A stretch of 64,000 nt of DNA, from the IMG/VR virus record IMGVR_UViG_3300009285_000003, positions 1 to 64,000 of that record. One strand, written 5' to 3'. Both the position numbers and the translations under genes were made by a program. Below are positions 3,759-63,800 of the stretch, one piece after another. The notes below the pieces were generated by a model that had not been told where the DNA came from, made no database searches, and saw only the letters and a list, made by a program, of their open reading frames with translations. Position 1 is the first letter of the stretch; the number at the start of each line of letters is the position of its first letter. The stretch is from a virus.

Positions 3759-4762
3759 AGATTTTTGTTCTGTTGCCATTAGGTGGTAAAAGTCCTATTG
3801 TGAACAGTGCTGATCCCATAGAACACCATCTAGCTCATCTGATCGCTGGGTTAAAGTACCTGGGGCACAGAGTTAACTTTGGGGTGGTACCAGACAGGAA
3901 GATTTACGATGTAGCCCTAGCAGTAGAGTACAGCCCTTATCTAAAGCTAGTTCGGGCAGGTAAGTACTTCACTGATCTGTACTCTGCTTCTAGGGCTGTA
4001 CCAGAGAATGATGGTGTCTTCTTTCGCTCCTACTACCATCAATATCTTATCAGGAAACACTCCAATATAGAACTGGAGAAGTGCTTCATTGTTGGACAGG
4101 TGGTACGTGGAGTAGGGGAGCAAAAGAGGGATGCTGACCGTGGTACCTCTGATACCAATGCCCCCCCTATCTTTACCTGGCCTATTGATCCTACCTGGGG
4201 GCTGTATCACTTACTTCGTTTGTGGCCTCAGATCAAGGAGAGGATGCCCAGTACCCTTCTGTACATCCCTAATGACCCAAGGCCCATACTAACTTCGGTC
4301 AAATTGGATGCCAATATTAGAGGTATACAGGCAGCTTACTCCCTAAAGTGGCTGGAAAACTGGGAGTGTTCGGGCACTCCTACTAATTCAGTTTTTGCCT
4401 ACACCTACGATCCAATGGTCCCTCTAGATATGTTTGGAGTCTCAGTTGGTGAGGCTTTAGTACTGGGTAACAGAACAATAGTACCTGCTAATACCGCCCT
4501 AAGTGAAGTTTGGGGCAAGCGTGGCGCTTTAGTTCTACCCTCTCCTCCCCTTGACCTACCCAATAGCTTTGAGGATAATCTGTGGCTTTCCGCCATTGAA
4601 GACGTACTGGATAAACCGGCACCTGAACCTCAGGGTCTCGACGATTATAGCTGGTACAATGTAGTTAGTAGATACGTCCAGGCATTTGAGGGAAATGAAG
4701 TCGAATTTGGTAGGCCAGGAGTGACCCTTATTGGTAATGCCAGTTCCGCCACAACTACCTAG
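3755..4762 (+). CDS. GT4-like glycosyltransferase
   Basis: The ORF track gives 3680-4762. I prefer GTG 3755 (VKIFVLLPLGGKS, a typical GT-B N-terminus). The C-half reads ...MFGVSVGEALVLGNRTIVPANTALSEV. Confidence 0.6.
   Translation: MKIFVLLPLGGKSPIVNSADPIEHHLAHLIAGLKYLGHRVNFGVVPDRKIYDVALAVEYSPYLKLVRAGKYFTDLYSASRAVPENDGVFFRSYYHQYLIRKHSNIELEKCFIVGQVVRGVGEQKRDADRGTSDTNAPPIFTWPIDPTWGLYHLLRLWPQIKERMPSTLLYIPNDPRPILTSVKLDANIRGIQAAYSLKWLENWECSGTPTNSVFAYTYDPMVPLDMFGVSVGEALVLGNRTIVPANTALSEVWGKRGALVLPSPPLDLPNSFEDNLWLSAIEDVLDKPAPEPQGLDDYSWYNVVSRYVQAFEGNEVEFGRPGVTLIGNASSATTT
4117..4167 (-). repeat. dispersed element copy 1 (core GGTCAGCATCCCTC on the minus strand)
   Basis: The plus strand reads GAGGGATGCTGACC at 4126-4139. 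The copy is antisense to the GT4-like gene. Flanks match copies 2 and 5. Confidence 0.8.
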
Positions 4763-4890
4763 ACCTTCAGGTATTATCCTACCAAGTGAGGAAGAAGATC
4801 CTCATGTGGATATGTGGCGAGAATATCGATCAGACGACAGGACCTTCCAGGACGTGCTAAATGACTTAGTGCTGCCAGAGGAGGAAACTG

Positions 4891-5763: not shown

Positions 5764-7706
5764 TGGCAATAGCAGTTGATTACATCACTATTGGCGGCTA
5801 CACCTTTAAGGTCCCAGAAAAGAACCTTCGTAAAGACGACATTACCTATCGGCCTCGTTCCGCAGCTATCTCCCGACAGGACCTGAACTTCTCAAGACCA
5901 GAGCCCTATGACGTACTGGAACAGCATGACTGGTCCGGGGGCGGTGGTAAGCAGCGGATGAACCTGGATGATCCAGAGGACGATCGTTACTTCACTGCTA
6001 AGAATATGGATATGTCTATTCCTGGGGTAGCCTTCCCCTCTCAAGCCCCAGTGGCCTTTAAGACAACTGCCGGAGCGGCCCTGGGCGCTTTGATAACTCA
6101 CTGGATTGTGTACAAGGGAAACCTCTTTGCCTTTGGTGGAACTACAGGATATTTCTGGGATACGACTGGTGGTACTCTGCCTAATGTTATGACTCTCACC
6201 GGCCCAACAGTTACAACACTAGCTTTTCCAGCAGCAGTGACTGATGTGGTTGTCTATGGTGGTACCCTCTTTGTAGCTATGGGAGAGTCCAATGCTTTTG
6301 TTTATACTACTGACTCTACACCTACGGCCTATACGGATTGGGTAGCAGCTACAGGAGCAGGAAACAACCTCTATGCCAAATACTGGACTGTTCTCAACAA
6401 TACCCTATACAAGGCCATCAACAAGACCGGATCATCTACCTTCTGCGGAATCCATAGCACTACAGATGTAGTTAACTCCTTTACCTGGAGTGCTACGGTC
6501 TCAGCAGGAGTGGGTAATAACAGCTACAACATCACCAACCTGATCTCCTATGAGGGCTCTCTCCTGGTCATGAAGGAGAACGGCATCTTCGAGATCGATA
6601 CCAACGGCACCCTCTACTCAGTGGCTGAGGAGCTTGATAGTTTCCCGGTATCCACCAACGGTGCAGTTTGTGTACAACATGGTGGCATAGTGTTCTTCAA
6701 GCTACGAGAGGGGCTTTCTGCTTGGGCAGGGTCCTCGATCCTGGGAGTATCCACCAGGACGGGTCTGCAACTGGTAGGTCCAGACTCCATATCAGATATG
6801 AACGCAGACGATGCGGGGACTCCTCTGTACGCCTGCTCTGCGCCTCCCTGGCTCTTTCTGACCAAGTTGGGCAAGGGGGGCAACTACTACGTGGTGAAGG
6901 CCCAGCCAGAAGGCAATGGACGAGGGTTCCACCCCTGGCTATTCAATAGCACCACTGCCTTGGGGGGCATCTTCTACTTTGCTCGTAGCACTGCTAACCC
7001 CCTACTTTGCTATGGTTCTGGCACTACTGGCAACTACGTCATTATGCCCAGGTACACCGATAACCCTCAGGATGACTCTAGCTGCACCTTCCAAGTAACT
7101 AGCTGCGAAGTGACTACCTGTCGCTTTCCCATGGGACCCCTAGCCTATGATAAGAAACAAGCAGCCTTTGAGGTGTGGGTGGGTAACTGCGACAGTGCAA
7201 CAAGAAAGATCAGTGTCTACTACGGACTGAATGGAGGAGCTACAACTACCTTCTTGGGTGATATAACCTCCAATGGCATTATTACTATTCCATTCCCTAC
7301 TGGAGCTAACACTGTAGAAGCCAGAGAAATACAGTATCGTTTAGTGCCTATTTCTAGCTCCGCTACTACTGTACCTCTAATCTACTCCTGGAAGCCTATC
7401 ACTAAGCTAAAGTACCCTGCACTCTGGCAGTGGTTGATCGATGTCCCGGCTAAACCGGATATTGACCCACAGCACAGAATTGGAGCCGTGTTGGACGTTG
7501 AGAAGGCCCTGGAGGCCCTTAGGGATGCCAATGAGGTCATCAAGTTCACTGACCACTATGGGCGCGAGTGGGATGTCACCTTCGAGCGGTTCTCCAAACA
7601 GGGAGATACCCAGCAAGCCGGAGGCCCACTCAAGCCCAATGAGCCTGCATCCTGGTTCCAGGTACAACTGGAGCAGTGGATAGGGACGAGTCCTGTAGAT
7701 GCGTAA
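5763..7706 (+). CDS. putative tail tubular/nozzle-like structural protein
   Basis: ORF track, 647 aa, translationally coupled on both sides. The N-terminal ...HDWSGGGGKQ resembles podovirus tail tubular B proteins. The assignment rests mainly on position. Confidence 0.5.
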   Translation: MAIAVDYITIGGYTFKVPEKNLRKDDITYRPRSAAISRQDLNFSRPEPYDVLEQHDWSGGGGKQRMNLDDPEDDRYFTAKNMDMSIPGVAFPSQAPVAFKTTAGAALGALITHWIVYKGNLFAFGGTTGYFWDTTGGTLPNVMTLTGPTVTTLAFPAAVTDVVVYGGTLFVAMGESNAFVYTTDSTPTAYTDWVAATGAGNNLYAKYWTVLNNTLYKAINKTGSSTFCGIHSTTDVVNSFTWSATVSAGVGNNSYNITNLISYEGSLLVMKENGIFEIDTNGTLYSVAEELDSFPVSTNGAVCVQHGGIVFFKLREGLSAWAGSSILGVSTRTGLQLVGPDSISDMNADDAGTPLYACSAPPWLFLTKLGKGGNYYVVKAQPEGNGRGFHPWLFNSTTALGGIFYFARSTANPLLCYGSGTTGNYVIMPRYTDNPQDDSSCTFQVTSCEVTTCRFPMGPLAYDKKQAAFEVWVGNCDSATRKISVYYGLNGGATTTFLGDITSNGIITIPFPTGANTVEAREIQYRLVPISSSATTVPLIYSWKPITKLKYPALWQWLIDVPAKPDIDPQHRIGAVLDVEKALEALRDANEVIKFTDHYGREWDVTFERFSKQGDTQQAGGPLKPNEPASWFQVQLEQWIGTSPVDA

Positions 7707-10700
7707 GGGAGTAGATCTTCTTTCTATGCTCCAGGGTGGGAACTACGCAAGGGCCTCTCAGCAGGCCATACAAGCCAATAATATAGAGTTGCGACTGGAG
7801 GCGGCGGAGACCGAAATATATTCTCAGGACCTAAGGCTATCCTCTCAAGAACAACGAAGATACTGGAGGACAGCCAGGATAAACCAGCTATTGGTCCGAA
7901 CAGCTAATATAGCCAATCTTGCTGTTACTAATGCCAAGATAAATGATGCTTCTATAGATAAGCTCACTGCAGGCACTTTGACAGTGGAGGCCGCTTTTGG
8001 CACGGGTGGAGTAATAAAGTCAGGCCAGACTGCGTATGATACTGGCACTGGGTTTTGGATAGAGCACAATACTGGAACTCCCAGATTTTCTATAGGAAAT
8101 AGTGCAGCCAACAAACTTATTTGGGATGGGATAACCCTGGCAGTTACTGGAACTATAACTACCACGGCTGGGACAATAGGTGGATGGACTATTGACTCTA
8201 CCTCTATCCGTAATTCAGCATCTACAGTAATGTTGCGAGGTGCGGGTAACTTAGCATTTGGGACGACGCCACCAACTTCCCCTACGGTTGGTACTGGACT
8301 CTTTATAGATAATACCGGAATTTTTGGCCTTAGTGCTAACACTCAAAACTTCTACCTACAGGCTAGTGACGGCAAGGCATACTTTGCAGGGGGTGCAGCA
8401 ATTCTAGACAGCACTGGAATTACAGTAACTGCACCTGCAGTCCTTACCACAACAGGAAATGCTTCTTTCATAGGCAACTTCACTGCTAACGGTATTATTA
8501 AATTTACTAATAGTGCTGGTGTTAGAATTGGTAGTACAGATGATCCAACTGTACCACTAGATGTAGTGGGAGCAGCACTGTTTTCCAGTACTGTTGGAGT
8601 TACAGGAATTGCTACCTTTACAGTAGCTCCTATTGTGTCCTCACTAACAGCAGGCAGGGTTGTGTTTGTGGGGTCCAGTGAAGAGCTAGTAGATGATGCT
8701 GATTTTACCTTTTCTGGATCAACTTTAACCGTAACTAATCTGGATGTTCCTGGTCAGTCTACCTTCTACCCAGCCCCTGAAATGCAGCATGCTGTATCTA
8801 CTGAGTTCTCAGAGACCAGTGGAGTACCGCCTACCCAAGCCTGGTTTACCGCATTAGCAGTATCGGGAATAGATGGATTTGCTGTACCGCTACACAACCT
8901 GGCAGAAACAGGTGTTAACCCTTATGCTGACACAATTATCACTAGAGCCCTCACTGCTGGACTTTGGGTGTGCGGATACTACCGACCAGTAGAAAATCTC
9001 TTAACTGGATACAATGCTTTAACTGCGGCCAGTAAGGCTGCACTAAAGTTTCTAGTCCTTGATGTAGAGGACGTTGGACACCCGGTAACAGCAGCAATGG
9101 TAACAGCAGCAGAAGCCGTAAAGCCAACCTGGATCTACACAAACTGGGGCATGTTCGGGGATGTTATGGGGTATGGTGCCACTGGTTGGAATAGAGTCAA
9201 GCTATGGATGCGAGACCTCTATACAGTACCAGCTACATCTACCACCCCAGTACCTCTCGATATGTATACTGCTGCTAGCGGAAAGACTTGGGAATCCTGG
9301 CCTACTCTTATGCCAGCGGATTGGAGGGTTCGGCAGGCTGTACAATGGGCCGATCCCCTTACCTTTACAGAAGGTGCAGAAAGCTACGCTTGTACGTACA
9401 ATGTGTTTAACTCTGTATCAGTAGGAATTAGCACTGCTGGTACAGTGCTAGCACATGACCATAGTGGAGTATCTGCTGGGGGAAACTACCTTTATAATAG
9501 TGAGTCTCTCACTGACTTCAAATTGAGCTACAGTAGTGGTACTAAGCATCTTCTCTTTGGTACTATAGATGCTGCTCATACTAGTGGTACCGAAGGTTTG
9601 GATATTAGCTTTAACTATGGTGGAGGAGGTGCTGCAATAGCTACCATAGAGACTGCTAAATATGGTACTGGATACCGAGATCTGGTATTGAGAGCATTAA
9701 CTTTAACTCTTAATGCTGGGACATCTGGCACTGGAACAGAATTAGTGGTTGATTCTACTAACTCGACTTTCAAGACCAACATAAAGGCAAGTTATATAGC
9801 AGGATCAAAGAGTCTTCTTTTTGGCACCATAGACTCTGTCCATACTACTGGTACCGAGGGGTTGGATATACTCTATGACTTTGCTACTAATAGTGCAATC
9901 ATAGAAACTGCTAAATATGGTACAGCCTATCGTCATCTGGTATTTAATTCGTTAGATACAGTGTTTAATTCGGGTACTAGTGGCACAGGTGGAATCCTTA
10001 AGATTGACCAAACTGGGATTCACTTTAGAGCACAGGCAGAAACTAACTATACTACACTTGCTAGATCATCTGATGCCGCTGGTACTATTACATTTCCTTC
10101 TGCTGGTGGGACAGTAGTCCTTCTGGATGCTACTCAAACCCTGGTTGCGAAGACGCTGACGACACCGACGATCGCGGCGATACCGAACAACCTGCGCATC
10201 GGCTCCGCCGTGGCCCCGACCGTCGCGCTCGACGTGACCGGCGCTGCGCTCATCTCCTCGACGCTCGGGGTCACGGGCACTACATCTCTCGGCGTCCTTT
10301 CAGCCGGTACTATTGCAGGCTCTACCGGCTCCTTTACAAGCTCTATAAAGTCAAGTAGTCCTACTGCTGGCATCGGTTACGCCACGGGCGCGGGCGGGAC
10401 CGTTACGCAGGGATCTGGTTCCGGCAAGGCAACCGGGGTCACGCTCAACAAGATCTGCGGCATCATTACGATGAACAATGCCTCGCTGGCCGTGAATGCG
10501 ATTGTCTCGTTCACGTTCACAAACTCGGCAATCGCAGCGGGGGACGTGCTGATCCTGAACCACTACACCACGGGACGCGTAGGCTCCTACGGCCTGAACG
10601 CGAGCGGCATGACCGCTGGATCATGCCAGATCAATGTCATGAATCTTGGCCACGTGGACGCGCTTGCCGAGGCAATCCAGATAGCTTTCGTTGTGATAAA

Positions 10701-13419: not shown

Positions 13420-13784
13420 AGAAGTGGTTCCTCGATAATGTGCTGGGGAGGTTCCTGGCTACCTTCTTTGTTACCGTTGTAGTGATTGGGGGTACAGTTG
13501 TGGCTACTAGAATGATGGATACTAACAAGGAAGAGTCGGTACCTCAGATAGCCCCCATTGGTTACACCCTCTACAACGCAAGTACCAACACCCTTATCGA
13601 TGTACAGCCCTGCCCTCACTCCTGGAGCCTGGCCCCTAATATATACTCCACTGATCAATGGATGCCAGAGTTCGGGTATAAGTTTGACTTTGGATTTTGG
13701 GTAGCTACTTCGGGTGGAATTCTAGTAGAACTTAAGCCTAAGGGCTATACACCCGGACCAGAATGTGGAGCAGCTTACCAATGA
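13416..13784 (+). CDS. hypothetical protein with N-terminal TM segment
   Basis: ORF track, 122 aa. The hydrophobic stretch FLATFFVTVVVIGGTVVA is present. Confidence 0.6.
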   Translation: MKKWFLDNVLGRFLATFFVTVVVIGGTVVATRMMDTNKEESVPQIAPIGYTLYNASTNTLIDVQPCPHSWSLAPNIYSTDQWMPEFGYKFDFGFWVATSGGILVELKPKGYTPGPECGAAYQ

Positions 13785-14068
13785 GTAATCTAGTAGAAGA
13801 CGTGAAGTTCCTCTATGATGAAATACTACTTAATCGCCTGATACCAGAATTTCACATGGACCACCTGTTTGCAGAGAAGCTCGGTATAACTGTTGAGGAG
13901 TTTCGAGCCAGGATAAATGCAGAGTGGGATGAGGACGAGTTGGTATCAGAGGTTCCAATGGTCAGCATCCCTCTTGATGACCCCTATTTCACTACTCCCT
14001 CAGACACACCTTTTCCCACTGAAAGAGAGAAGGAACTAATGAGAAAGATGTGGGGTCTTGGATGGTGA
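13781..14068 (+). CDS. hypothetical protein (contains element copy 2 in frame)
   Basis: The ORF track gives 13763-14068. ATG 13781 makes an ATGA overlap with the upstream stop. Confidence 0.6.
   Translation: MSNLVEDVKFLYDEILLNRLIPEFHMDHLFAEKLGITVEEFRARINAEWDEDELVSEVPMVSIPLDDPYFTTPSDTPFPTEREKELMRKMWGLGW
13926..13975 (+). repeat. dispersed element copy 2
   Basis: GGTCAGCATCCCTC lies at 13960-13973. The 5' flank GTTGGTATCAGAGGTTCCAAT matches copy 1. Confidence 0.8.
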
Positions 14069-16686: not shown

Positions 16687-17056
16687 TGCTCTCTAACCAC
16701 TCCAGGAAATCTCCAAGGGATTTAAACGTACAATCTGCCAGAGTATAGAACTGACTCTCCACCCAACCAATTACCACTACCCAAGCACAAGTACTAAGGG
16801 CATATCCATATTCGACATGTCTTCCTCCCCTACTTTTAGTATTTGGCTCTTCTGTAAAGAATACACATACATCTGCTTCTCGTATACGCTCCATATCTTC
16901 CTGGGCACAATCTTCCCATTTAGATCGATAGTCAGAATCTGGAATGGCTGTCCACAACCAACTACTAACTACCTCATGTCCTAAAGACCTAAGAGTTTCA
17001 GCGTGCCTTCGTAGTTCCCTTCTACGTTGAAAGTCAGCCCCTAGATAAATCTTCAT
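16664..17056 (-). CDS. nucleoside 2-deoxyribosyltransferase-like protein
   Basis: ORF track, 130 aa. MKIYLGADF...ADVCVFF...GGRHVEYGYAL resembles the family. The call is tentative. Confidence 0.45.
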   Translation of the reverse strand: MKIYLGADFQRRRELRRHAETLRSLGHEVVSSWLWTAIPDSDYRSKWEDCAQEDMERIREADVCVFFTEEPNTKSRGGRHVEYGYALSTCAWVVVIGWVESQFYTLADCTFKSLGDFLEWLESNDCPFSN

Positions 17057-17223
17057 GTATTAGGGTACTCCTCGTAGTGCTCATCATCATAGTAATCAAG
17101 GACTTCATCATAGGTAAGCCCCCGTACCTCTATTAAGTCCAGGCAGTGCCCACAAACATATACCTCATTTCCGATGTTGGCAACTGCCGGAGCCGGGCAA
17201 AATTGGCAATCCCTTTCATTCAT
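17053..17223 (-). CDS. small zinc-ribbon protein, 56 aa
   Basis: MNERDCQFCPAP...VCGHCLD. Its stop overlaps the downstream ATG (ATGA). Confidence 0.5.
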   Translation of the reverse strand: MNERDCQFCPAPAVANIGNEVYVCGHCLDLIEVRGLTYDEVLDYYDDEHYEEYPNT

Positions 17224-17372
17224 ACTTGCAGTCCTCCGTTGAGTGTGGTAAGATCGTCATGAGGGATGCTGACCGTTGGTGCCGACGATACCTCACAGTC
17301 GGGAAAGGAGACTCTTTTTAGAGTCTCTTTTTCATCTCCCTCCCCATCCTCCCGAACCAACTGGACAGCCAT
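17220..17372 (-). CDS. possible 50-aa ORF carrying element copy 3 in frame
   Basis: MAVQLVREDGEGDEKETLKRVSFPDCEVSSAPTVSIPHDDLTTLNGGLQV. Its stop overlaps the ATG of 17053-17223 (ATGA). The RBS is weak. Confidence 0.3.
   Translation of the reverse strand: MAVQLVREDGEGDEKETLKRVSFPDCEVSSAPTVSIPHDDLTTLNGGLQV
17261..17298 (-). repeat. dispersed element copy 3
   Basis: The plus strand reads GAGGGATGCTGACC at 17261-17274. The minus-strand flank CTGTGAGGTATCGTCGGCACCAAC matches copies 4, 5 and 6. Confidence 0.8.
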
Positions 17373-17465
17373 CCCCTGCAAAATGCTCTCTCAGTACCAT
17401 ATCTGACTCTCCTTCCAAGCTAGGGCCACCAGAAAAACAACAACAGCAACAACAAGAAGGTCCAT

Positions 17466-30673: not shown

Positions 30674-33388
30674 TTAGCCACAACCCGTGGCTTCTCCGCA
30701 AGTGCCACAGACAAAACACGACCCAGAACGAGACATAATACCCCCACAGTTAGGACAGAGCATACCATGGGTAGTGGGAAGAGGGATGCTGACCGAAGGT
30801 GCCTCGTCCCTCACAGCCATGCCCCCCGTTGCCTTCCATATTCTGGTTGCCCACTCATCAAGTGCTTTTGTATCATCAACATACCCACCCATTGTCCACT
30901 CCGGTTTGAGAACATTGACGTTAGTGGAAACTGGCCAAGGTTCTCCAGGCTTGGGGATGTTCCACAGTGGGGCAAATAGAAACCTCTTCTCCATCCACTG
31001 GAAAATGTAATCCACTACTGACGTACAACTGGGGATGTTCTTATCTCCAGTAAACCCAGCAGGCTCAAACCTCTGTCCCTTGAGCTTCCGAGCAATATCG
31101 GCAAGGGGCACTCCATATTGTAGGGCCAGACTAACCATCACTGCAAAGCTGTCCATCAGCCCACCGAGTGTGCTGCCCTCCTTGGATATGGTAATAAATA
31201 GCTCTCCAGGTGTGCCATCAGGATAGAGCCCCACTGTAAAATATCCATCCTGACCCCCAATCTCGAACTTATGAAGGATGGCATCTCTGGTAGTTGGTAG
31301 CTTCTTACGAGTGCTACTGGGTACTGCAAGATATGAGGCTACTAGCTTATCCATTTCCTCTATCTCATCAGGGGTGTTCTCTTGTGGTCCTATGTACCTA
31401 GAGTCATCTGGTGAATCTACTCCCACAAAATCCCCTTCTATTAAGGTGCTCATTATCTGAGTAGTCTTGCTGTTATCTCTGTACACACTAATACTCTTCA
31501 ACCCTAGTTCCCACGCCCTAATGAACAACTCCCTTATCTGCTGAGGAGTAGTCTCTTCAGGCACATTGACTGTCTTAGAGATACCACCACTGAGATGAGG
31601 TTGTACTGCTGCCATCATAAGAAGGTGGTCTTCTATTGATACACGATTGCTGCCATCAGGGTTACCCATAGCAGTAGTAAATAGTGGGTTATAAAACCTT
31701 TCATCATAGGATAGAGAATTAGGCCAACATTCTGGAATGGTGGTCATACTGCCTCCACCTACTAAAGTCTTGACCTTATTAGGTGCATAGATAGGCTCAA
31801 TACCAGTACTATCACAATCCATCATGAAGCTAATAGTACCAGTAGGAGCAAGAAGTGTTAGTTGAGTGTTACGAATGAAACTTAGGTCTACAGCAAAGGG
31901 GCACACCTCAAAGGCTTCATTCCAGATACTACTTCTTGTGTAGTCCTCTAAGGAATCAAGGTGACGTTCCCAAACTCCTCTGGTGCCCCATTCTTCTAGG
32001 CCCTCGGCTGCCCCAAGCTTCACCCCCAGTTCAATACTAGTTGCATACGCCTGAGCATTCATAAGGGCTGTAATAGAAGCGGCTAAGTCTCTACCTTCTT
32101 CTGAACCATATGGCATCCCAGCCATGAACAACATTGTAGCAAGGTTTGTGTACCCCAGTCCCAACTCTCGATACCTATGAGCATTTTGTGCTATCTCCTC
32201 AGTAGGATAAGAGGACATATCCACCAGAATATCCATAGCCGTAATTAGAATATGGACAGTGTGCTTGAATCCCTCAATATCAAACTGCCCGTTCTTCCAG
32301 TACTTAGCCAAGTTAATTGAAGCTAGATTACAGGCAGTTTTATCCAGACTTAAGAACTCGCTGCAAGGATTTGATGCACGTATCTCTCCAGCCTTAGGGC
32401 GAGTGTGCATCCTGTTGATGGTGTCCTTAAACTGAATACCAGGATCACCACATTCCCAGGCTGCTTTTGCTATGAGGTTGAGCAAATTGGAAGCATTGTC
32501 TACAACCACCCCATCCCCCCATTTCTCAGAGGATGTTTGCCCTTCCTCTCTGTAAGTTAATCCCCATTCTCCACCTGCTATAGCGGCCTCCATGAAGTCA
32601 TCCCCCACCCTCACAGAGTTATTAGCATTCTGAAACTGGACAGAACTCCATGCTTCACCATTCAATCCGAGGTCATACCCTTCCCTTGCCAGCGCTTTCG
32701 CCTTTCTCTCTTCTTTGACTTTGCATTGGATGAACTCTCTGAGGTCTGGGTGGTCGTCATCAAGGATAACCATCTTCGCCGCACGCCGAGTCTTCCCACC
32801 CGACTTGACCGCACCAGCAATAGAGTCTGCTCCCCGCATAAAGGACACTGGCCCACTGGCTGTACCGCTGGTCGAAAGTGGCTCCATGCTTCCCCGCAAC
32901 TTAGACAGGTTAACTCCTGCGCCACTGCCTCCCTTGAAAATAAGGCCCTCATTACGATACCACTCCAGGATTGAATTGATGTTGTCTTCTACTGAGAGAA
33001 TGAAGCAAGCAGAACATTGGGGCTTTTCCTCCACTCCTACATTGAACCAGACTGGGCTATTAAAAGCTGCATGTTGGTTGAGAAGGAGGTATTCTAGCTC
33101 ATCAATGAAAATGAGTCCGTTATCCACGTCTTCATCTGTGTCAAAGTAGCGTAAGTCAAAATCTGCTATAGTGTCAGCTACTCTATGTACTAAATCCTCA
33201 ACATCAGTCTCCTCCCTTCTGAAGTACTTTGACGCAACGATATTAACTGCATCCTGGCTCCATGAAGCAGGTGCTCTAACTCCTTCCAACTTGAATCCAC
33301 TACCGGGAATCTCTGCTGTCCTTGTGACCCATCCAATAGATTCTGTAGGGTCCCAGTTTGTTGTAGTATAGTGACGGTTAAACTTCAT
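30674..33388 (-). CDS. nrdJ: ribonucleotide reductase, class II-like (single large chain with C-terminal zinc ribbon)
   Basis: ORF track, 904 aa. The active-site loop is SNPCSEF. The C-terminus reads CPNCGG...CFVCGTCG. No separate small-subunit gene is in the window. Confidence 0.75.
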   Translation of the reverse strand: MKFNRHYTTTNWDPTESIGWVTRTAEIPGSGFKLEGVRAPASWSQDAVNIVASKYFRREETDVEDLVHRVADTIADFDLRYFDTDEDVDNGLIFIDELEYLLLNQHAAFNSPVWFNVGVEEKPQCSACFILSVEDNINSILEWYRNEGLIFKGGSGAGVNLSKLRGSMEPLSTSGTASGPVSFMRGADSIAGAVKSGGKTRRAAKMVILDDDHPDLREFIQCKVKEERKAKALAREGYDLGLNGEAWSSVQFQNANNSVRVGDDFMEAAIAGGEWGLTYREEGQTSSEKWGDGVVVDNASNLLNLIAKAAWECGDPGIQFKDTINRMHTRPKAGEIRASNPCSEFLSLDKTACNLASINLAKYWKNGQFDIEGFKHTVHILITAMDILVDMSSYPTEEIAQNAHRYRELGLGYTNLATMLFMAGMPYGSEEGRDLAASITALMNAQAYATSIELGVKLGAAEGLEEWGTRGVWERHLDSLEDYTRSSIWNEAFEVCPFAVDLSFIRNTQLTLLAPTGTISFMMDCDSTGIEPIYAPNKVKTLVGGGSMTTIPECWPNSLSYDERFYNPLFTTAMGNPDGSNRVSIEDHLLMMAAVQPHLSGGISKTVNVPEETTPQQIRELFIRAWELGLKSISVYRDNSKTTQIMSTLIEGDFVGVDSPDDSRYIGPQENTPDEIEEMDKLVASYLAVPSSTRKKLPTTRDAILHKFEIGGQDGYFTVGLYPDGTPGELFITISKEGSTLGGLMDSFAVMVSLALQYGVPLADIARKLKGQRFEPAGFTGDKNIPSCTSVVDYIFQWMEKRFLFAPLWNIPKPGEPWPVSTNVNVLKPEWTMGGYVDDTKALDEWATRIWKATGGMAVRDEAPSVSIPLPTTHGMLCPNCGGIMSRSGSCFVCGTCGEATGCG
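30779..30827 (-). repeat. dispersed element copy 4 (inside the RNR C-terminal linker)
   Basis: The plus strand reads GAGGGATGCTGACC at 30781-30794. It is translated as ...GMAVRDEAPSVSIPLPT... Confidence 0.8.
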
Positions 33389-46014: not shown

Positions 46015-46215
46015 ATGGCTGGTGAAGAGACTGGTTACAGAAGTCAGGATACGGGGGATGTTCTTGCCAAGGTTCGCACGATTCTTTCGGGCAAGCCAGT
46101 GCGACAGAGCGCCATTGAGAACTCGGCTGGTGACAAGGGCTTTGAGAAGGCTGGGGTTAATAAGGGCGTGGGTAATCATCACAGTGGCAGTGCTAAGGTG
46201 ACAAAGGTTCGCTAG
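46015..46215 (+). CDS. hypothetical protein
   Basis: ORF track, 66 aa. Confidence 0.55.
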   Translation: MAGEETGYRSQDTGDVLAKVRTILSGKPVRQSAIENSAGDKGFEKAGVNKGVGNHHSGSAKVTKVR

Positions 46216-46383: not shown

Positions 46384-46404
46384 CTCCCTGCGACCTGGGA
46401 AAGT

Positions 46405-46430
46405 GGCGCTCTGGTAGCGCCGCTTTTCTA
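46405..46430 (+). terminator. rho-independent terminator
   Basis: GGCGCT-CTGGT-AGCGCC is followed by GCTTTTCTATTT. It lies 22 nt after the stop at 46383. Confidence 0.6.
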
Positions 46431-46498
46431 TTTATAGCAAGTTTAGTGAGTTTACCCCAGTTTATGCTCCGAGGCTAATTTCTTCATAAGTGAGGACT

Positions 46499-46552
46499 GA
46501 GGGGCTGTGAGTGATCAGAGGCACTCAACGGTCAGCATCCCTCTTTTGCTCC
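46499..46552 (+). repeat. dispersed element copy 5 (intergenic, upstream of the packaging genes)
   Basis: GGTCAGCATCCCTC lies at 46530-46543. The full match is GAGGGGCTGTGAGTGATCAGAGGCACTCAACGGTCAGCATCCCTCTTTTGCTCC. Confidence 0.8.
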
Positions 46553-46569: not shown

Positions 46570-46809
46570 ATGAAGACAGCAACCTTTTACTGCCAGGAGT
46601 GTTCTACTTCCCGTCCTATAACCAGCAATCCGATGCACACTCTTCTAACAGACGAAGCAACAGAGGCTCGGAGACTGGGGGGGAGACCTTTATCTGTTCG
46701 CTGTCCTGAATGCAGCATCACCACACAAATAGTCCTTAGCGAAGCTACAATCTTCCAGCTACGAAAGGAGTGGAAATGGAAGCAGAAGAATTCCTCCCTC
46801 CCGAACTAG
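46570..46809 (+). CDS. zinc-ribbon protein
   Basis: ORF track, 79 aa. It contains CQEC...CPEC. Confidence 0.55.
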   Translation: MKTATFYCQECSTSRPITSNPMHTLLTDEATEARRLGGRPLSVRCPECSITTQIVLSEATIFQLRKEWKWKQKNSSLPN

Positions 46810-54844: not shown

Positions 54845-57800
54845 ATGGCAGTTAAAAAGAAGCCGCTATTTGGAGGGTTCAATCTAACTCCTATTGAGCT
54901 TCCTAAGACGAATGCACTTGGGCTGCCGTTGCCCATCAATCAGGCCACTATTCCTGCACTAGCTCCACCCAGAAAGAGGCCCAAGCGAGAGCGGGTAAAG
55001 ATTAGTAGAGGTAGAACTAGCAGGTCCCAACCTGCAAGGTCCCAACCTGCTAGGTTGGACACCACCCCTCCTCCTGTTCCTCCTGTAGTTACACCTGTAC
55101 CTAAGCCGGAGCCCATGAGGATACAGAGGCAAGAGAGCAACCCTCGAATTGCCAAGCAAGTGGGTAGAACCACCAATGACTACCGTTCTTCTGTAGTAAG
55201 GAATCTGAAGTACCAAACCGGAGATACTAAATTCACCACTACTGACTTGGGAGTAAGTTTACCTTCTACTAAGAGAGACAAACTTTCAAGGACAGAGGCA
55301 TTCTCCCCTGTAACCTGGGCTCAAAAGTTTCCTGAAGCTAATGCTGCAAATATAACTAACTTCCTGGCTATTCGTGGATACCCAGCTAGTAGTATTGCTG
55401 ATGCTGCCAAGTATATTGCAGGTCAAGGGCATCTAACTGCCTTTGAGAAATACACAATGGCTGAGCAGTGGTCTAAGTCAAAAGAATTTGCCGATCCAGA
55501 AGCTACCCAAGAGCAAGAGATAATCAATAACTCTCCCATAAAGTTCAACGATAGTAGGGCTACTAAATGGGTAGCTTCAGTATCTTCTATAGCAGCAGGT
55601 CCCACTGGTGGAATTAACTCTGCCGATATGCCAGACTTTCTGAGGATGGCGTTGGCTATTATCATGCAGGAATCAAATGGGGATGAAAAAAGTAGCAATG
55701 TTAATCCTGCCACTGGAGATGATTCCCACGGTCTACTCCAGATTAACTTGGCTGGAGGACAGGGAATCCAGGTATTAGAGTGGTTTAAGGGGGAAGCAGA
55801 CCCTCGTGCAGCAGCTATTGCTTGGCTGGAAGACCCTAATAACAACTTGTCCCTGGGTTTAGGCCCTATCGCTAAAGCCTATTTAGCTCTCAAAAAGCAG
55901 CCAGATGCGGACAAGATGTCCGACCAATCACGTCTAGCTTTTGTGCTGGCTAACTCAGGGCATCCTAGAGAAGATGGAAACATAGAAGCTATACCACTAA
56001 CTTCTCGTATTGCCTTTGCTACCTGGTACGAACGATTGGGCGCTCCAGTTGGAGATATTGCAACAAGGTCTTCTACTACTATTGATTATTCCTGGAAAGA
56101 TATACCTCAAACATTAGAGTTTGGGTCTAAGGAGCCACCTTACGAGAACAACCCAGAAGGCCACCTGGGCACCGACTGGGCCGTGCCTTGGAACACTCCT
56201 TTGGAGGCTGTTGTCCCTGGAATAGTCTCTGTGGCTGGTCCCAACGGTGGCTATGGAAATATGGTAGAAATTACCTTCAAGATGGGGGACAGCGAATACA
56301 AAATGCGGTATGCCCACTTGAACTCTATAGCAGTAGAGGTAGGTCAGGAAGTTACCGCAGGACAAAATATTGGTGCCTCTGGGAATACTGGTTATGTAGT
56401 TGGTACCGCAGACCCAGAACATCCTGGAGCACACCTTCATCTTGAATTGCGTAAAGATGGTGTTCCTACTGATCCTCTAGAGTTTCTCAATATGGGCACT
56501 ATTGAGTCTACTTCTATGCAGCCCACATTGTTAAATGATGTAGTAGATAACTGGTGGAATCGAGCCTTGAATGCAGCAACATTAGAGGCCGGTAAGCCTC
56601 CAGAAGCAGCTAGTCCAGCAGTTCTAGATGTTGCTGTAGGACTGGAGGAAGCTGCAGGAAGCCCAGGAGACATACCAAAAGAGTCTCAGTTCCTACTGGA
56701 TGTAGAAACCGAAGACCCTTACAAAATGGAGGAATATCGAAAACAACTTGGGAGTTTTGTAACACCTATCTCCGAAGAAGACATAGATAGAATCCTCACT
56801 GAAACTGTTAAGCGACCCATCACCCCTAAAGAGAGGGAGCAAATAAAGGCAACTATTCTTAATGGGGACGAAGAGTTAAGAACATACGCTTTCAATGCTT
56901 ATGATCTCTTCATTCGTAATAAGATCAGAGAGCAAATGGATTCTCCTGGAGAGTCTTTAGTTGGAGACTTTTTGGGAGAGACCAGCAACGTAGCGGAGGG
57001 ACTAGCAGCTACAGTTTTTGGCCCATATGCTCACTTTGGTACAGAGTTACGAAAAAAGGCTGGACTGCCTGATGTTGGAGCACTAAATCTACTACTTTCT
57101 ATTCCTGCTGTAATAGCTGCACCCCTAATAATGGGGGTCGCTCCTCTTGCTGCTCCTGTGGCAGGATTGGCCGGTTATGTAGTTCCACAGACAGTTGATA
57201 ACCCCTATCTCTTCGACCCAGAGAAATCCATCCCTGAAAACTGGGAGAGGAACAAGGAACAATACACAAAGGAAAACCTGGGAGAATTTGTTGATTGGGG
57301 ACCGCTTCATATCTCCCCTCAAACTATTTCCTATGAAATGTTCCACATAGAGAATGTTGTACCGGCTAAGTGGTTTGCTGCTCCTGCTCAAGCTATGATT
57401 TCCAAGACAAGGGGATTCGGAGAAAGGTTCCTCAGTGGGGGCCGTACTGCTACCTGGTATAAGAGACAGGCTGGTACGGAGACTTGGCAGAAACTCGGTA
57501 AGATTCTTGCCACCGTTTATCCTGATAGAGATCTGAGAAGCATACAAGGACATGAGGTTCTTGCTTTAATAGATGGTTCTGCCCCCAAAGAGCTTTTAGA
57601 TCTGGTTCCCCCTGGGTTGTTAGATGATGTTGCATCGATCATCATAAAACCCCCACGTCCTGGGGATAAGGACATAGCTATTCTTGCCAGGTCATTGGGG
57701 GTTTCTACTCCCCATTATTGGCACCCATTGGAACGAGCAGCAATTGGGAACGATCTGGATAATGTACTCTTTGACCTCGCTAAGAAGATGGACAATGTAC

Positions 57801-60800
57801 AGAAGTCCTATAAGGGGGGTGGACTTGGAGCAGGCTTAAAGGAAGAATTGGATAAGGCCAGAAGTAATGCAGTACTCAGGATAGCTAATACTGTATCCAG
57901 AGGTTCAATGGATGATGTAACTGAAGCCCAATTTAACTACATAAATGATTGGGTAGAGTCAAAACTAAGAAGCTCCTTAAAAGGAAGCCTAACCACTGCT
58001 GCTGAGTCAGGTGGCAAGGCAATTGTACTGCCAGGGGCCATGGGGCGAGCCACTGACATAATGGCAGCAGTTAAGCGACATACGGAAACAGTATGGGATG
58101 AAATCTGGTTGAAGCACAAGTCTAAGATTGCCCAGGAGAGAAACAAGGTAGTCCAGGGGATGACGGACTTAGGATGGAACATGTCTTTGAAGAAGGCATG
58201 GACTACTGCTATGGAACCCTTCAATGTCCACCACACCAGAATGATTCTTGGATTCCCTGGGTTCCCCATGGGAAACGTACTGGAGGCCCAGGTAAATAAT
58301 GCGGTCTATGCGGGCAAGAATGCCCTAAAGTTTGGTGCCACTGACCACACTGCTACAGATTCCCTTATTGAGTTAATCACCTCAGAAAACCTACTTCCTG
58401 ACCTGAAGGGCTTCCTGCCATCGGGTCTAATGATAGACCAATCCGCCGACCTGGTAAAAAGGAAAGCAGTTGCACAGGCTTACTATGACGCCCTTAAAAC
58501 TACTGGTAGGTATCAAGAACTGGCCAAATTATTGGAGGTTATTGCTAACCCCGACCTTGATACCAGTCAGAAAGTGTGGTTGAATCTAAAGCGTAGGAAG
58601 AAGGCGTTAAAAGAAGGAGATATAAAGGAAGCCCTGTTCCCCCAGAAGAGGGCTCCTTCTGAGACTGGGCTAATGGCTGTCCCAGAAGCACTGGAGGAAA
58701 AGGTAGCAAGTAGGAAGGGTGTTTTCAAGGAGCCGGGTATAAAATCTGGACTTGAAACAGTTTTCACCGGCATTGAACACGCAACTACTGCTTCTATTTG
58801 GCACAAGGTAAATGATGTATTTGGCAGGAGGCTCCGAGCAAGGTTCATCCTGGAGTCGTACCATAAGGAGTTGCGTAAGTTAGCTAAAGAAGGTTTGGTA
58901 GCTCCCTCTACTTTAAGAAGTCTTCTTCTACGAGAGGGCCTGGAGGAAATGCCTACAGGACTACCTAAGTGGGCTAAGAAGCAGTTAGCTGAATATGTTA
59001 GACAGAACGTTGGCAAAGTGGGAGCCGAAGACCTATTCCGAAATCTAGACAGCTTTGTTTCAGAGGGCAAAATACTCAAGAGTAAACTAAATGAGTACAT
59101 CAGCCAAAAAGCCCCCTACATGCCAGAGAAAGTGAAACAACGGTTCTACAGTTTCTCCAGAGCCAGAGGAACCATTACCAGAAAAGAGTTAGATGATTTC
59201 ATAGAGACGGAACTTCGACCTATGATGTCATCAGAACTCTTGGCACAGGATTTGTTCCTTATGCCTGAGTATGTCCAAGAAGCCAAGGTCATGGTAGACA
59301 CCTGGAACAAACGACTCGGTGAGCCTAAAACAGTTACAGAACTACTTGACTACGCAAAAGCGCTGGAAAAGTATGGAGACTGGATTGCTGATTTCCCTGG
59401 CCGGATAAACCGAGAGGGGGCCAGATATGCGGCGAGAGGAGACCGTGCTTCTGCTGAGCTTATGTGGACCGAACTTACTAAGCATGTGGATGATATAAAG
59501 CAATTAGCTACCACTCATCGGAATCTTCTAGAACAAGTAACTGGTGCCCTTAGAAAAGAGGAATTGCACCAGTACGCAAATCAGGTAGATCTTCAAGCAG
59601 AACTTTCGGCTAAGATTGCTGAATACTGGCGTTTAGATCGAGAAGCAATTGCTGGTTTAAAAGACAAGTATGGCCCAGAAGCCTTTAAGTATAGAGATGA
59701 GTGGGTAACAGCCAGATCTGCAGTTTGGGACCAGTTTGATGTAGAAATGAAGACCTGGAAGGGCAAAAGGGTTGACCCACTGGTCTATGCTAGAGAAGTA
59801 ATAGATGCACTAAAACGCCAAGCAGACCAGGATGGTAAGATGATTCCCACTCTTCGAGAACTCTACCGACAGGCAGAGAAGAGGGGGGTGCTTACTCCCA
59901 AGGAAACTATGGCATCTATCAATCAGAACTTTCCAGGCTTATATGACAGAATTTTCCCCAAGCGTAATCAGATGGAGAAGCTACTAATCACAGAAAACCT
60001 TGATCCTAATAATAAGGCTAAGTTAGCAGACGAATTGGGTAAAATGTGGCGAGGCGAGGGAGACCTGAGTGCCTACCATGCTATGGAAGATAGATTCCAG
60101 GGCACAAGAGATATTGGTACTGTGGCAGAGTCCCTTCATAGAAAGTACCGACCAAAGAGTATAGACGACACTCCGTTGGTAGATATTGCTTACACTGACC
60201 AGGGACGACTAACGGAAATTGGAATTGAGTTAAGGACCCTCTCTCCTAACAGCATTGAAGCCGAAATCTTTGATACTGTCACTAAGCTAGAAAAGAAGGC
60301 CAAGGGAGAGTACACAGTTAAACTTACCCAGGGCGACGTTGCTTACCTGAAGGCTCGTGGGGTAGATGTAACCACTCTTCCTGGATACAGGCCTGGACCT
60401 ACACTCTCTCAACCTGATCTGGATAGCATCAGATGGAAGTTAGGCTCTGGAGAACCGCTTGGATTACCTCCTACTGAAACAATTCCTACAGGACCATCTT
60501 TAACAGAGAGGCTAACTGGAACTCCTGGTGAACCGCCTCCTGCTACCATGGCAGAAACCATTCCAGCAGAAGCTGTTTTACCAGAAACGCCAACTTCTCC
60601 ATTGCCAGACAACTTTGTAGCTCTTCAAGGTAAAATCTCTAAAATAACCAACAAAGCAACTGGGGATCAATTAGACTCAATGGTTTCCAAATTTGAAGAC
60701 TATATATCTTCTTTAGCCCCTGATTCTATGGTAGATAATGTGGTAGGGGACTCAGCAGATGACTTGCAAAGGTCACTGGCGGATATAATTGATTCCGTGG

Positions 60801-63800
60801 AAGAGCGATTGGGTGATAGGTCAGATGCAGTACTGGAATCTAGACTTGAGACTCTAAACGACCTAAACGAAAGGTTAGATTCTGTCATATCTGACTTGTC
60901 TGATTTAACCCCTGAAACAGTAATGAGGACACCAGTCTCAGAACCGCTATATGTTGGGCCGGTTGCCAAAAGTTGGAAAGTGGAGAAAGACGGACAGATT
61001 ATCCAAGGTGGGTTCCCCACAAGACAAGAAGCTGTAGATTCTGTACGAGACCGGGGAAGTGGTTTTACAGTAAGGCCGGAGGAGTGGACTTCAGCACCCG
61101 AGCCTGCTCCGGCAGAAATTCCTAAAGTAGCAGTGGGGCCAGAGGTATCAGATGCAGCATACGGCTTAGAAGTACTCGCCCCAGACCCCCGTAGTCCCAA
61201 TCGAGGATGGAGAGTACAACAAAGAAACTCAGGAGAAGTAGCAGACGGATTTGCCAATGAGCAAGAAGCTCTTCAGTATATTGAGAATGTTCGAGGAACT
61301 GAGTCAGCAGTTTTCCCAGAAATTCCTCCTGTGGAGGTTATTGGTCCTCCGCCGAAACTCCCTGCTTCCAGAGAGGCAGCAGTGGGGCCAGAGGTATCAG
61401 ATGCAGCAACGGTCAGCATCCCTCCTCAAGAAGTACCTATTACCTGGCCTACAGAACCAGGTACCTCCCTCCTTGGTACTAAGTTAGCTAAAGTAGTCAG
61501 AACACGCCGTTCAGACTTACTCACTGCTATCAAAAAGATACAGAATACCATTTCTGATGAGAATATTACTAACTCTAAGATGTTCTTTGATGCTCCCTTA
61601 GAGCAGCTAAAAGTACCAACACTAGATGCTCCATTTGGAGAGAGGTTAGCGTACTTCATTCGACTGAAGCACGATAAAGAATTAGCCTCAGGACTGGAAC
61701 AAGCTGGAGACATACTAACCTTTAATAGGTTAAAGACTGTAGATGGTAAAGTAGATGAGTTCATGCAGGAGATGCACTCTGCTATAGAGCAGGTTACAAA
61801 ACAGCCTATCAGTGATCCAAAGTTAAAAGGAGAACTAAAAGCCTATGGAAATCGGCTAGCTGACATGCAAAATAAGTTAACCGATGCCGAACGTAACCAA
61901 CTCAGTACTATGAAACGAAAGGCGTTCAAGAACTCTCTTGAAAATGTATCTAGAGCTTACACTAACTACAGTGACGGATATGCCCTAGATATGGCCATGT
62001 CTAAGGTGTTCCCCTGGTGGCAGTATGCTTCTAGAGCGCCCTTGCGAACTGTGGAACTCTATACTAGAACTCCCTTCTTACTCAGAGGAACCCTGAAATT
62101 CTTGGAAACCGCAGAAGAAGGTGGGTATGTCCCAGTTCCAGGTAACTTGGGCTGGGCCTTTGCCCCTGCACAAGGTACACAGTTCTCCAGACCTTTCCAA
62201 ACTTTATCTAACCTTGTAAATCGTGGAATAGGATGGCCTAAGTATGGTGGAGTTTTAGGCCAGGCAGAACAGGTTGTAAATGCCTTCCAAGCAAGTGGGG
62301 CGTATTCTCCCATGATGAGTAACCTCATTAGTCTTGGGGCCGCAGCAAGTGATAGAGACTTAAAGTTGGGTATGGACTCATATTTCGGGTCTACAGCACT
62401 ACAGATGTTGGGAGATGGAGCTTCTGCCTTAACGAACCGAATACCAAGATTTGGGATTGCAAAACCCGCTGCAGATTTGTACAACGATGTGCTGGAGGTA
62501 TTAGGGGACCCATACGGCGAAATGAAAATACTCATGTATTACTCTCGCCGTGGGTACTCACCTTCTACAGTTGAAGCGGCCCTAACTCTTAATATGAATA
62601 TTATCGCTAGAGAAGATGGCTCTGGACGAGTAGATCCTAAGATACTGAGACAACAAGCAGAAGACTACAACCGAGAAGTGAACTTCTTTTTCGATATGTT
62701 CGGGAATGTGAAGTCAACTGACCCTGGTATCAAGGAGTTTAAGAAGACCCTTCAGGGGTATTTAGTCAAAGCCATTATGACTGATCCAACTCTTTACAAG
62801 GCATGGAAAGCTGGAAATATAAACCCCTTTACCATGAACCCTAAAGACATTCTAAAGATGTTACCTCCTGCTCTCAGACGTAGGGTAGAGGATCTACCCT
62901 ATGGGTATATTTACGATAATGCGAATTACTCCTCTGTGTTCAATGCTCCAAATACCAGAGAGCGACAACAGAACATGAATGCTTACTTCTACTGGGAACA
63001 GTTAGAACGAGACAGGATGCTTATAGAGCAATCATCTGATGATGCTGCTTTGGCTGCTGGGATAAAGTCTGCCGGAGGACAGGGGGGAATTGACCACCAA
63101 ACCTGGATGGATCAACGTAAGAGTCGTATGGAACAGTTCCGTGGTGCACAGGATGCCCAAAGAGAACGACTTGGAGTACCAGCAACCTCTGCGGAATGGG
63201 ACCGTTATAACGAGCAAAATGGTGGAACTAGAGAGGAGTTACACCCTATTCGTCGAGCTATAGATGACTATTACTCCATAGCTCCAAATGCAGTAACCAA
63301 GCAATATTACACCCCAGATGGTCAGGTAGACTGGGCAGCTATTCAAGATGACAGAGATGCACTAATAAACTCACTTCCAGAAGCTGAGGCCCAGGCAGTA
63401 CTTGATGAGATTCAGAAATACATGACACCTACAGAGAAAGATTTCATTAGGGCTATCAGACAATTTCAGGACTTCAACGAGTTACCCAGATATGAAATTC
63501 CCAAGGGGTTTCCCTTAAAAGAAGGAAGGGTAGAAGAATATCTGAATGATAGGGAGACCTATAGCAAAATTACCAAAAACTGGAAAGAGCATAATGGGGA
63601 ATGGAACAAGCTGTCCAAGGATGATCAAAGAGATCTTGTTGGTGGGTCAATCTTCTATGATAAATGGGGTAATGAAGTATCAGCAGATCAAGAGTGGGTT
63701 AAGGAAGTAAAGGTAAGAGGACTTCTCTTTAAGTGGAGGTCCTTTGATCCAATAACTGGAAACTGGAAGAACCTGCTTAATAACCCTCCAGATAGCTCAA

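Follow-up and report, generated by a model that had tools for sequence, protein, structure and literature searches.

The 64,000-nucleotide (nt) stretch of viral DNA analysed here, hereafter the window, is positions 1 to 64,000 of the IMG/VR record IMGVR_UViG_3300009285_000003 and comes from an uncultured tailed phage of groundwater. It contains six exact copies, three on each strand, of the 14-mer GGTCAGCATCCCTC, each of which forms the 3' part of a longer, strand-oriented element. The family is constrained at the level of its nucleotides, it is retained in related phages, and one base of its core differs between the window and all the copies found in those relatives. The sequence comparisons require purifying selection on the nucleotide sequence of the resident copies. 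The reading that we favour, tentatively and with slightly less than even confidence, is that the six copies are oriented cis-acting sites for a phage-specific factor, most likely one that would control transcription.

The six occurrences, first reported in an earlier note made from the sequence alone, were all recovered on the strands given there, and a search allowing up to 2 mismatches adds none. Not one of 100 dinucleotide shuffles of the window gave six sites, the shuffle mean being 0.47 at ≤2 mismatches. In a k-mer census of the window, more than two copies were found only for 14-mers belonging to the GGTCAGCATCCCTC family, which disposes of the generic repeat background that the note had named as a possible objection. 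The mismatch spectrum is bimodal, with 6 perfect sites and 0 at 1-2 mismatches; at 3, 4 and 5 mismatches the counts are 5, 41 and 242, compared to 5.8, 46.7 and 258 in Markov simulations. The family is all-or-none: degenerate sites form no halo around it, and near-sites are not avoided either. Shuffles, census and mismatch spectrum together rule out a chance origin. An nhmmer profile built from the six copies recovers all six (E = 7e-15 to 2e-10) as matches of 44-53 nt, so that the similarity extending 20-35 nt upstream of the 14-mer, also described in the note, is real. This profile search adds just one partial, decayed seventh copy in the window (E = 0.012). No further copy was found in the 2.8 kb beyond the window in the complete contig (L164; 66,783 nt, from groundwater metagenome SRR2177362). 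Around the genome, the copies are spaced at intervals of 3-16 kb.

The element spans about 33-45 nt and consists of a variable 5' box, the invariant 14-mer and a sharp 3' edge. Its consensus is GGGGC-(3-7 nt)-GGTATCAGAGGCACCAAC-GGTCAGCATCCCTC-(T)T, in which the 5' box is GGGGC..GGTATCAGAGGCACCAAC. Conservation climbs in the 5' to 3' direction and ends abruptly past CCCTC. All six copies agree at 14/14 core positions, whereas their 5' halves show differences of 20-40% and contain indels; among these, ±1-nt indels in the spacer between GAGG and GGTC give the element a bipartite look. Its 5' edge is diffuse, and no consistent inverted termini were found. The 3' extension CTCTTTTGCTCC, common to copies 1 and 5, is present as previously noted. 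When the copies are translated in the sense direction, those within coding sequences use one common frame, giving the linker-like peptide …EVS(E/D)AP(T/S)VSIP…, and their codons are identical across copies. The antisense strand of the element has stop codons in two of the three frames. The copies are listed in Table 1.

Table 1. Copies of the element in the window and in the giant gene of contig L163
Copy	Element	14-mer	Strand	Setting
1	4123..4171	4126-4139	-	full element, antisense in the GT-B-like glycosyltransferase gene 3680-4762(+)
2	13926..13976	13960-13973	+	full element in the last gene (13763-14068) of the + (late) block
3	17258..17301	17261-17274	-	between genes, 37 nt upstream of the ATG of a 56-amino acid (aa) Zn-ribbon open reading frame (ORF; 17053-17223)
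4	30778..30825	30781-30794	-	class II ribonucleotide reductase (RNR) gene 30674-33388
5	46494..46546	46530-46543	+	non-coding; the packaging/structural block opens 26 nt further on with its first ORF (46570)
6	61379..61427	61411-61424	+	3033-aa virion protein gene (54845-63946), read as AVGPEVSDAATVSIPP
Decayed seventh	61130-61159		+	5' half, 30/30 identical to copy 6
L163 copy	7633-7678 (of L163)			giant-gene hypervariable region; ACAGTGGGACCAGAGGTATCAGAGGCATCAACGGTCGGCACCCCTC, nhmmer E = 4e-8

A search with the RNR protein, whose gene holds copy 4, returned two proteins 67% identical to it (P0009 and P0010), on contigs L138-L141 from groundwater and other ENA assemblies. These contigs are syntenic with the window (DUF7417 - RNR - … - UDG), and their RNR genes and products are 69-70% and 67-72% identical to those of the window in nucleotides and amino acids, respectively. 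At the linker position of copy 4 they carry GGGGCTAGAGGTATCAGAGGCACC-ACGGTCAGCACCCCTCT (nhmmer E = 9e-10). The RNR linker around the element is unalignable between the window and these relatives; over the RNR gene and the giant gene (below) together, the element forms an island of 83-89% identity inside such linkers. In addition, a 1-nt indel shifts the frame of the relatives' 14-mer, which is read there as EVSEAP-RSAPL, compared to DEAPS-VSIPL in the window. The relatives thus keep the nucleotides at the same sites, and in the RNR they do so in another frame, which excludes ordinary conserved coding sequence, named in the earlier note among the outcomes that would refute its finding. Overall, the RNR genes of L138 and L141 share 77% of their nucleotides, yet across the element they match perfectly for 44 nt. 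This perfect run is the third-longest of the gene and the sole one in the otherwise unalignable linker; both longer ones fall in the catalytic barrel domain, in its N-terminal part.

The giant virion protein, used in the same way, led to P0130 on contig L163, which is 70-76% identical in nucleotides to the window where the two can be aligned. The giant gene of L163 (976-10647) is split into genes of 2163 aa and 1046 aa, compared to the single ORF of the window, and the split falls in the hypervariable region that holds copy 6. The L163 copy shares the site-specific 5' flank of copy 6, CAGTGGG.CCAGAGG, and is 83% identical to it over 58 nt, compared to 57-64% in the adjacent coding DNA. It is displaced by a few hundred nucleotides relative to copy 6, and a faint decayed trace is found at the place where copy 6 would be expected. 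The giant gene of the window thus has a full copy next to a decayed one, and that of L163 apparently has the same pair, which suggests that sites turn over locally under selection for "a site in this region".

At position 9 of the core, all the relatives' copies, in the RNR gene as in the giant gene, have a C where the six copies of the window have a T, a comparison that covers two site positions in the relatives, on contigs that perhaps do not belong to one genome. This lineage-wide switch suggests a trans-acting reader that would have co-evolved with its sites.

Purifying selection on the resident copies is thus required because the core is invariant while the 5' halves and the flanks diverge, because the element is retained across lineages and across reading frames, and because indels rescue the host ORFs and leave the core untouched. 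The same facts bear on a selfish origin, which the earlier note had proposed and which we consider unlikely. According to this explanation, a mobile or duplicative mini-element of ~45 nt would survive in frame wherever a Pro/Ser/Glu linker peptide is tolerated. Several features would fit: the contexts are unrelated and most copies lie in protein linkers, all sense coding copies use the same benign frame, the 5' half is duplicated locally within the giant gene, and the element belongs to one narrow clade, with no match under the pattern used in 185k reference genomes and none in more distant relatives. However, there are no terminal inverted repeats, transposase or reverse transcriptase to accompany it, target duplications are not apparent at its diffuse 5' edge, and strain variants 99.3-100% identical to the window all carry the copies, with no presence/absence polymorphism. 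The copies in the RNR and giant genes predate the split from the ~70%-identical relatives, and their cores are nearly intact amid linkers that can no longer be aligned, which requires purifying selection on the resident copies; such old intact copies do not sit easily with an insert that is neutral or was mobile recently. Moreover, the lack of homogenisation in the 5' halves speaks against gene conversion as the source of the 14-mer identity, and the glycosyltransferase loop holding copy 1 is only ~7 aa longer than that of its homologues, not 15. Among the strain variants, 0 single-nucleotide polymorphisms (SNPs) fall inside any copy, the diversity being too low to inform.

The gene that holds copy 1 is a real GT-B-type glycosyltransferase-like gene, with homologues at E = 6e-36. 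In its frame, the copy encodes GEQKRDADRGTSDTNAPP, within an inter-domain loop of the glycosyltransferase. Relative to the consensus, copy 1 has a 1-nt deletion (GTACC-AC) that removes an otherwise in-frame TGA and leaves the 14-mer intact, so that the host gene stays open with the core untouched. The gene of copy 2, encoding 101 aa, has a coding score like that of real genes and reads the copy as ELVSEVPMVSIPL; the copy sits 95 nt ahead of the stop codon, with convergent genes beyond. Copy 4 lies in the flexible linker that joins the TSCPD domain of RNR to the C-terminal Zn finger, which begins within 8 codons after the copy, and it is read as VRDEAPSVSIPLP. Copy 6 is in a hypervariable stretch, ~30 nt upstream of the conserved C-terminal domain (~850 aa) of the giant protein. 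The decayed seventh copy has TACGGCTTA in place of the 14-mer and is read as AVGPEVSDAAYGLEV.

The remaining two copies precede genes. Copy 5, the closest to the consensus and unchanged in strain variants L115-L117, lies 60 nt past a G+C-rich hairpin with a T-run (about 46404-46436), terminator-like when read by eye and not listed by a consensus terminator scan. Between this hairpin and the gene that opens the ~34-kb packaging/structural block, no other sequence is conserved, and no sigma-70-like promoter was predicted in the gap. Copy 3 comes 10 nt after the hairpin GAGACTC-N6-GAGTCTC. It may lie inside a weakly coding ORF of 50-53 aa (17220-17381), in the VSIP frame; the coding potential of this ORF is 0.04, compared to 0.1-0.36 for small genes, and its stop codon overlaps the ATG of the Zn-ribbon ORF (ATGA). 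Such ATGA stop/start overlaps are found at both 17220-17223 and 46570-46573, where a short ORF running through copy 3 or copy 5 meets a Zn-ribbon ORF, of 56 aa and 79 aa, respectively. They may reflect coincidence or a link by translational coupling.

The positions of some copies recall the recombination boundary suggested in the earlier note. A role as a boundary or shared linker cassette at module junctions, which would favour homologous exchange among related phages, or as a peptide motif acting at the protein level, is very unlikely in our view. Copy 6 adjoins the point where the relatives split the giant gene, copy 4 divides the RNR core from its Zn-finger tail, and copy 5 divides the early and late modules, with a SNP-dense recombinant patch (45611-46098) at a distance of ~400 nt. 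The translated consensus, EVSEAPTVSIP, also resembles a generic linker. Nevertheless, none of the copies falls on a mosaic breakpoint, a 45-nt stretch of which half has diverged would be a poor substrate for homologous recombination, and nothing specific speaks for a boundary. The peptide motif is excluded because the codons are identical, because copy 5 is non-coding and copy 1 antisense, and because the relatives' RNR copy has its 14-mer in another frame.

The note had also put forward a promoter or an RNA signal. A cis-acting nucleic-acid signal is favoured by the comparison with relatives, with a promoter only the leading inference, while RNA structure is unsupported. RNAalifold gives -1.3 kcal/mol and 0 compensatory pairs for the six-copy alignment, and folds of single copies and of the 5' halves are no better than those of shuffles (z-scores of -1.6 to +1.4). 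Apparent hairpins in copies 1, 2 and 5 are equalled by shuffles. Searches of Rfam gave no match at the gathering threshold for the full window or, around copies 3 and 5, even at E <= 10, and ARAGORN found neither tRNA nor tmRNA. A sequence complementary to the 14-mer, able to serve as its partner, occurs nowhere in the genome. The C-rich (rut-like) composition seen downstream of some copies is inconsistent between copies.

A linear signal carried by the transcript and bound there by a protein or a guide RNA, for example for processing or cleavage, for nut/boxA-like antitermination or for translational control of the downstream Zn-ribbon ORFs, is quite unlikely. It would agree with the sense orientation of five of the six copies, with the single-stranded character and sharp 3' edge of the core, and with the location of copies 3 and 5 in 5' leaders, where upstream ORFs end in ATGA overlaps. 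Invariance over 14 positions is also what base pairing with a guide would impose, and CUCUU, which follows the core in four copies, bears a faint resemblance to boxA. Against this stand the lack of a conserved fold, of covariation, of an Rfam match and of a complementary partner, and the fact that only an antisense transcript would contain copy 1. Furthermore, the 10 nt that separate copy 3 from the preceding hairpin leave no room for a promoter, so that this copy cannot be a promoter-proximal antitermination signal.

A DNA site related to transcription is favoured because no RNA structure was found, because the layout is bipartite with slack in the spacer, because the sites are strand-oriented, and because copies 3, 4 and 5 lie upstream of gene starts: the next co-directional start is 123 nt downstream of copy 4, the corresponding distances for copies 3 and 5 being 37 nt and 26 nt. 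We infer a protein as the reader and transcription as the process. In the model that we propose, one sequence-specific factor, particular to this phage lineage, would read the sites and co-evolve with them. It would recognise a bipartite, strand-oriented site made of a tolerant 5' box, GGTATCAGAGGCAC with a spacer varying by ±1 nt, and a strictly required 14-bp 3' box. The sites could act in either of two ways. They might be promoters of a middle or late transcription machinery, copy 5 standing ahead of the late block and copies 3 and 4 upstream of starts, or they might be sites inside transcription units at which a regulator would load onto RNA polymerase or block it, in the manner of ops or of stoperators. 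Because the genome is tightly packed, most sites would be housed within genes, in flexible linkers, and translated in the least disruptive frame (…EVSEAPTVSIP…). Readings of the 5' box as a sigma-54, CRP/NtcA-like or ECF promoter were rejected on inspection, as they misfit in spacing and in conservation.

A more specific version of this model is doubtful, though a real possibility. It holds that the ~45-bp site belongs to a hitherto undescribed transcription-control system, with an unrecognised phage protein (sigma-like, RfaH-like or a roadblock), in a lytic, podovirus-like phage. In such a system, the RNR, the glycosyltransferase and the giant virion protein would carry the same "forced" linker peptide, and the frame changes and site turnover described above would be its evolutionary footprints.

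Several observations weigh against sites that control transcription. Copies 1 and 2 have nothing sensible to drive, copy 1 pointing antisense to its gene and copy 2 having no co-directional gene downstream. In L163, the copy is not upstream of its gene but within it, by 126-170 nt. Although the genome has other non-coding gaps, ORFs hold four or five of the six sites. The earlier note had stressed that five of the six copies point the same way as local genes. The count is correct, but the bias is not significant, and it is weak evidence because the antisense stop codons in two of the three frames, that is, coding constraint alone, predict a sense bias. Scans of ~60 proteins with Pfam and PHROGs, in which divergent proteins could be missed, recognised neither a phage RNA polymerase nor a sigma factor, a NusG-like protein or a repressor; likewise, no match to PF00940 or to a sigma-70 domain, and no integrase or ParABS, was found among them. 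A virion RNA polymerase within the giant protein was considered and rejected, as neither DxDGD nor T7-type catalytic motifs are present. The narrow base of the T/C comparison, described above, belongs with these objections.

The element can be compared to several families of dispersed phage sequences. Stoperators of Cluster A mycobacteriophages (L5 gp71-type) exceed 20 sites per genome (about 30 in L5) and are mainly intergenic. Like the present element they are short and asymmetric (13 bp there, a 14-bp core here) and dispersed over the genome, and their consensus shifts with the genome, just as the T or C at position 9 is coherent here. They lie predominantly in one orientation relative to transcription, which recalls the five co-oriented copies here, a bias that antisense stop codons would also explain. 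They differ in being far more numerous than the six copies found here, which are mostly inside ORFs, and in varying individually at some positions where the six cores are identical; the present element also has an additional conserved 5' box of 20-30 nt. Moreover, those phages are temperate with an identified repressor, while neither repressor nor integrase was found here. The stoperator motif tracks its repressor across relatives (PMC6550527, PMC9283540).

Promoters of the phiEco32/7-11 group are highly conserved, have few copies and were found by pairwise similarity, not by motif statistics (PMC4331800). Promoters read by phage sigma factors or RNA polymerases, whether of this group or T7-type, resemble our element in being highly conserved, few, lineage-specific and, for some of our copies, co-directional with genes; one of our copies heads the structural block. 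The phage also has a weak match, below threshold, to the SU10-type adaptor family (PF24175; 22.5 bits, the curated cut-off being 27). In contrast to such systems, no gene for a sigma factor or RNA polymerase is detectable here, two copies have no gene to drive, there is no sequence similarity to described promoters, and the element is longer than the ~12-nt motif of phiEco32 type. An upstream, co-directional position is occupied by copies 3, 4 and 5 but not by copies 1 and 2, and copy 6 and the L163 copy are intragenic.

The nick sites of T5, phiKMV-like phages and phage tf are likewise few, dispersed, strictly conserved and asymmetric, and they occupy similar positions among relatives (PMC3517423). 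They lie on one strand and have a 7-19-nt consensus, whereas the present element is found on both strands. We regard it as decidedly unlikely that the copies are sites for a phage endonuclease with site-specific nicking or cutting activity, which would leave localized single-strand interruptions in the packaged DNA. The length, asymmetry and all-or-none character of the element, with few copies at 3-16 kb intervals, would suit this function, for which an intragenic placement is irrelevant, and a free-standing HNH endonuclease is encoded at 42275-42928. Known nick sites, with a 9-19-nt consensus and similar positions among relatives, are thought to co-evolve with the nickase, as hypothesised for phage tf and its cognate sites (PMC3517423). 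However, they are confined to a single strand in every described system, even in tf with its convergent blocks, while three copies lie on each strand here; a bipartite element of 33-45 nt is far longer than the known nick consensus, and HNH genes are ubiquitous in phages.

Two further families of mycobacteriophage repeats, the start-associated sequences (SAS) of Cluster K with their extended form (ESAS; PMC3203893) and the 17-bp repeats of Cluster O (PMC4351075), resemble the element in that they are cluster-specific, have no assigned function, are not found in host genomes and recur at the same genes from one relative to another. Of the 34 Cluster O repeats, about 20 are within ORFs and 14 between ORFs (PMC4351075). 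SAS are, in addition, asymmetric and one-oriented, with an optional upstream extension (ESAS). They lie 3-7 bp from start codons and have a core like a Shine-Dalgarno sequence, whereas the element is mostly not associated with starts. The Cluster O repeats are palindromic, with more than 30 copies, whereas ours is asymmetric.

Outside phages, the ops/JUMPStart sequence read by RfaH has an oriented, invariant core of ~12 nt in a conserved element of ~39 nt. It is transcribed DNA that heads, and occasionally lies inside, very long operons, and its non-template strand is read as DNA. Unlike the present case, it is a host system with a NusG paralogue as reader, none being seen here, and there is no sequence similarity between the two. 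The Rickettsia palindromic elements, of 100-150 nt, numerous and decaying after insertion, are found in frame at surface or linker positions of unrelated genes. They share with our element the tolerance of short repeats in frame in unrelated genes; they differ in being palindromic, and old copies of the element keep an invariant core. The element therefore belongs in kind with the dispersed repeats specific to phage genomes and is a member of none of these families by sequence or by defining features. It is distinct in its few copies, its mostly intragenic placement, its 45-nt bipartite form and its frame-independent conservation.

In the collections scanned, the element is confined to one narrow phage clade. 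Contigs whose large terminase (TerL) is 39-44% identical (L118, L119 and L162) have neither the element nor an obvious analogue, and the same is true of 20 IMG/VR contigs encoding an RNR of ~40% identity. In IMG/VR, three longer, specific patterns gave no match and the 14-mer alone gave only chance matches. One contig there, L018 (IMGVR_UViG_3300022188_000023), has a triple 14-mer at 8440-8740, which is a chance coincidence within a tandem array of 15-nt period, CAGGTNAGCNNCNCT; the array looks like a coding region for pentapeptide repeats, and this viral contig is unrelated. A scan of JGI metagenomes returned only fragments of the same phage and single chance matches. Among 185,579 species genomes (GTDB) scanned with GGCACN{4,5} followed by the 14-mer, 7 single, unrelated matches were found. 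The element is not a host repeat (REP-like) or an uptake sequence under this pattern, which is strict enough for diverged copies to escape it.

Short dispersed repeats specific to a genome are known from a few well-studied phage groups, several of them without an assigned function, and the same kind of element is found here in an unrelated, uncultured groundwater phage. It is unusually clear here that the nucleotides, rather than the peptide, are the target of selection: the same gene positions are kept over ~30% nucleotide divergence, the reading frames differ, and one base has switched. If a reader protein were found, it would form with the element a new sequence-specific DNA-protein pair of ~14-bp specificity and would explain a regulatory code overlaid on the coding sequence of a compact phage genome. 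The 14-mer with its 5' box is also a specific marker for this phage clade in metagenomes.

The phage is novel: no isolate has a TerL more than 26% identical to its own, and a search of IMG/VR by TerL found no relatives. The genome is divided into two blocks. The + block runs from ~46.5 kb through the contig end to 14 kb and encodes packaging functions, portal, the 3033-aa virion protein, capsid, glycosyltransferases, adaptor, tail and lysis proteins; the - block, from ~40 kb down to 14 kb, encodes PolA, a helicase, the class II RNR, UDG and nucleases. An M23 peptidase domain at aa 417-560 is the sole domain detected in the giant virion protein. The free-standing HNH endonuclease (PHROG 2255, E = 5e-29) lies in the early region of mixed orientation.

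Two inteins are present. One, with an HNH domain, occupies ~2362-3291 in the GT2-TPR-GT4 glycosyltransferase gene (226-3558) and is missing from the L163 orthologue, and the other, with a LAGLIDADG domain, is in DNA polymerase A (24752-27772). The junction of the glycosyltransferase intein is unlike the element, and a homing site was discarded as an explanation. A 1.1-kb ENA contig (L165) is identical to window positions 3069-4087 and then continues with unrelated sequence, diverging 35 nt from copy 1; it is possibly a structural variant or an assembly chimera and was excluded from the evidence.

In the strain variants that are 99.3-99.7% identical to the window, nearly all SNPs fall within a patch of ~500 nt (45611-46098). 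Within it, L116 has a 116-nt insertion, in the ~45752-45760 region (L116, L117). This patch closely precedes the late block and has the look of a short segment that is recombinant or hypervariable. Finally, a second repeat family, distinct from the 14-mer element, consists of a ~60-nt sequence found in two genuinely non-coding gaps, at 35700-35800 and 42190-42270. It has the perfect palindrome GCTTGCTAGCAAGC between ACAGATTACACGAATATA and AGTATAAAAGGTGTAA, and it looks like the paired promoter/operator regions of early genes.

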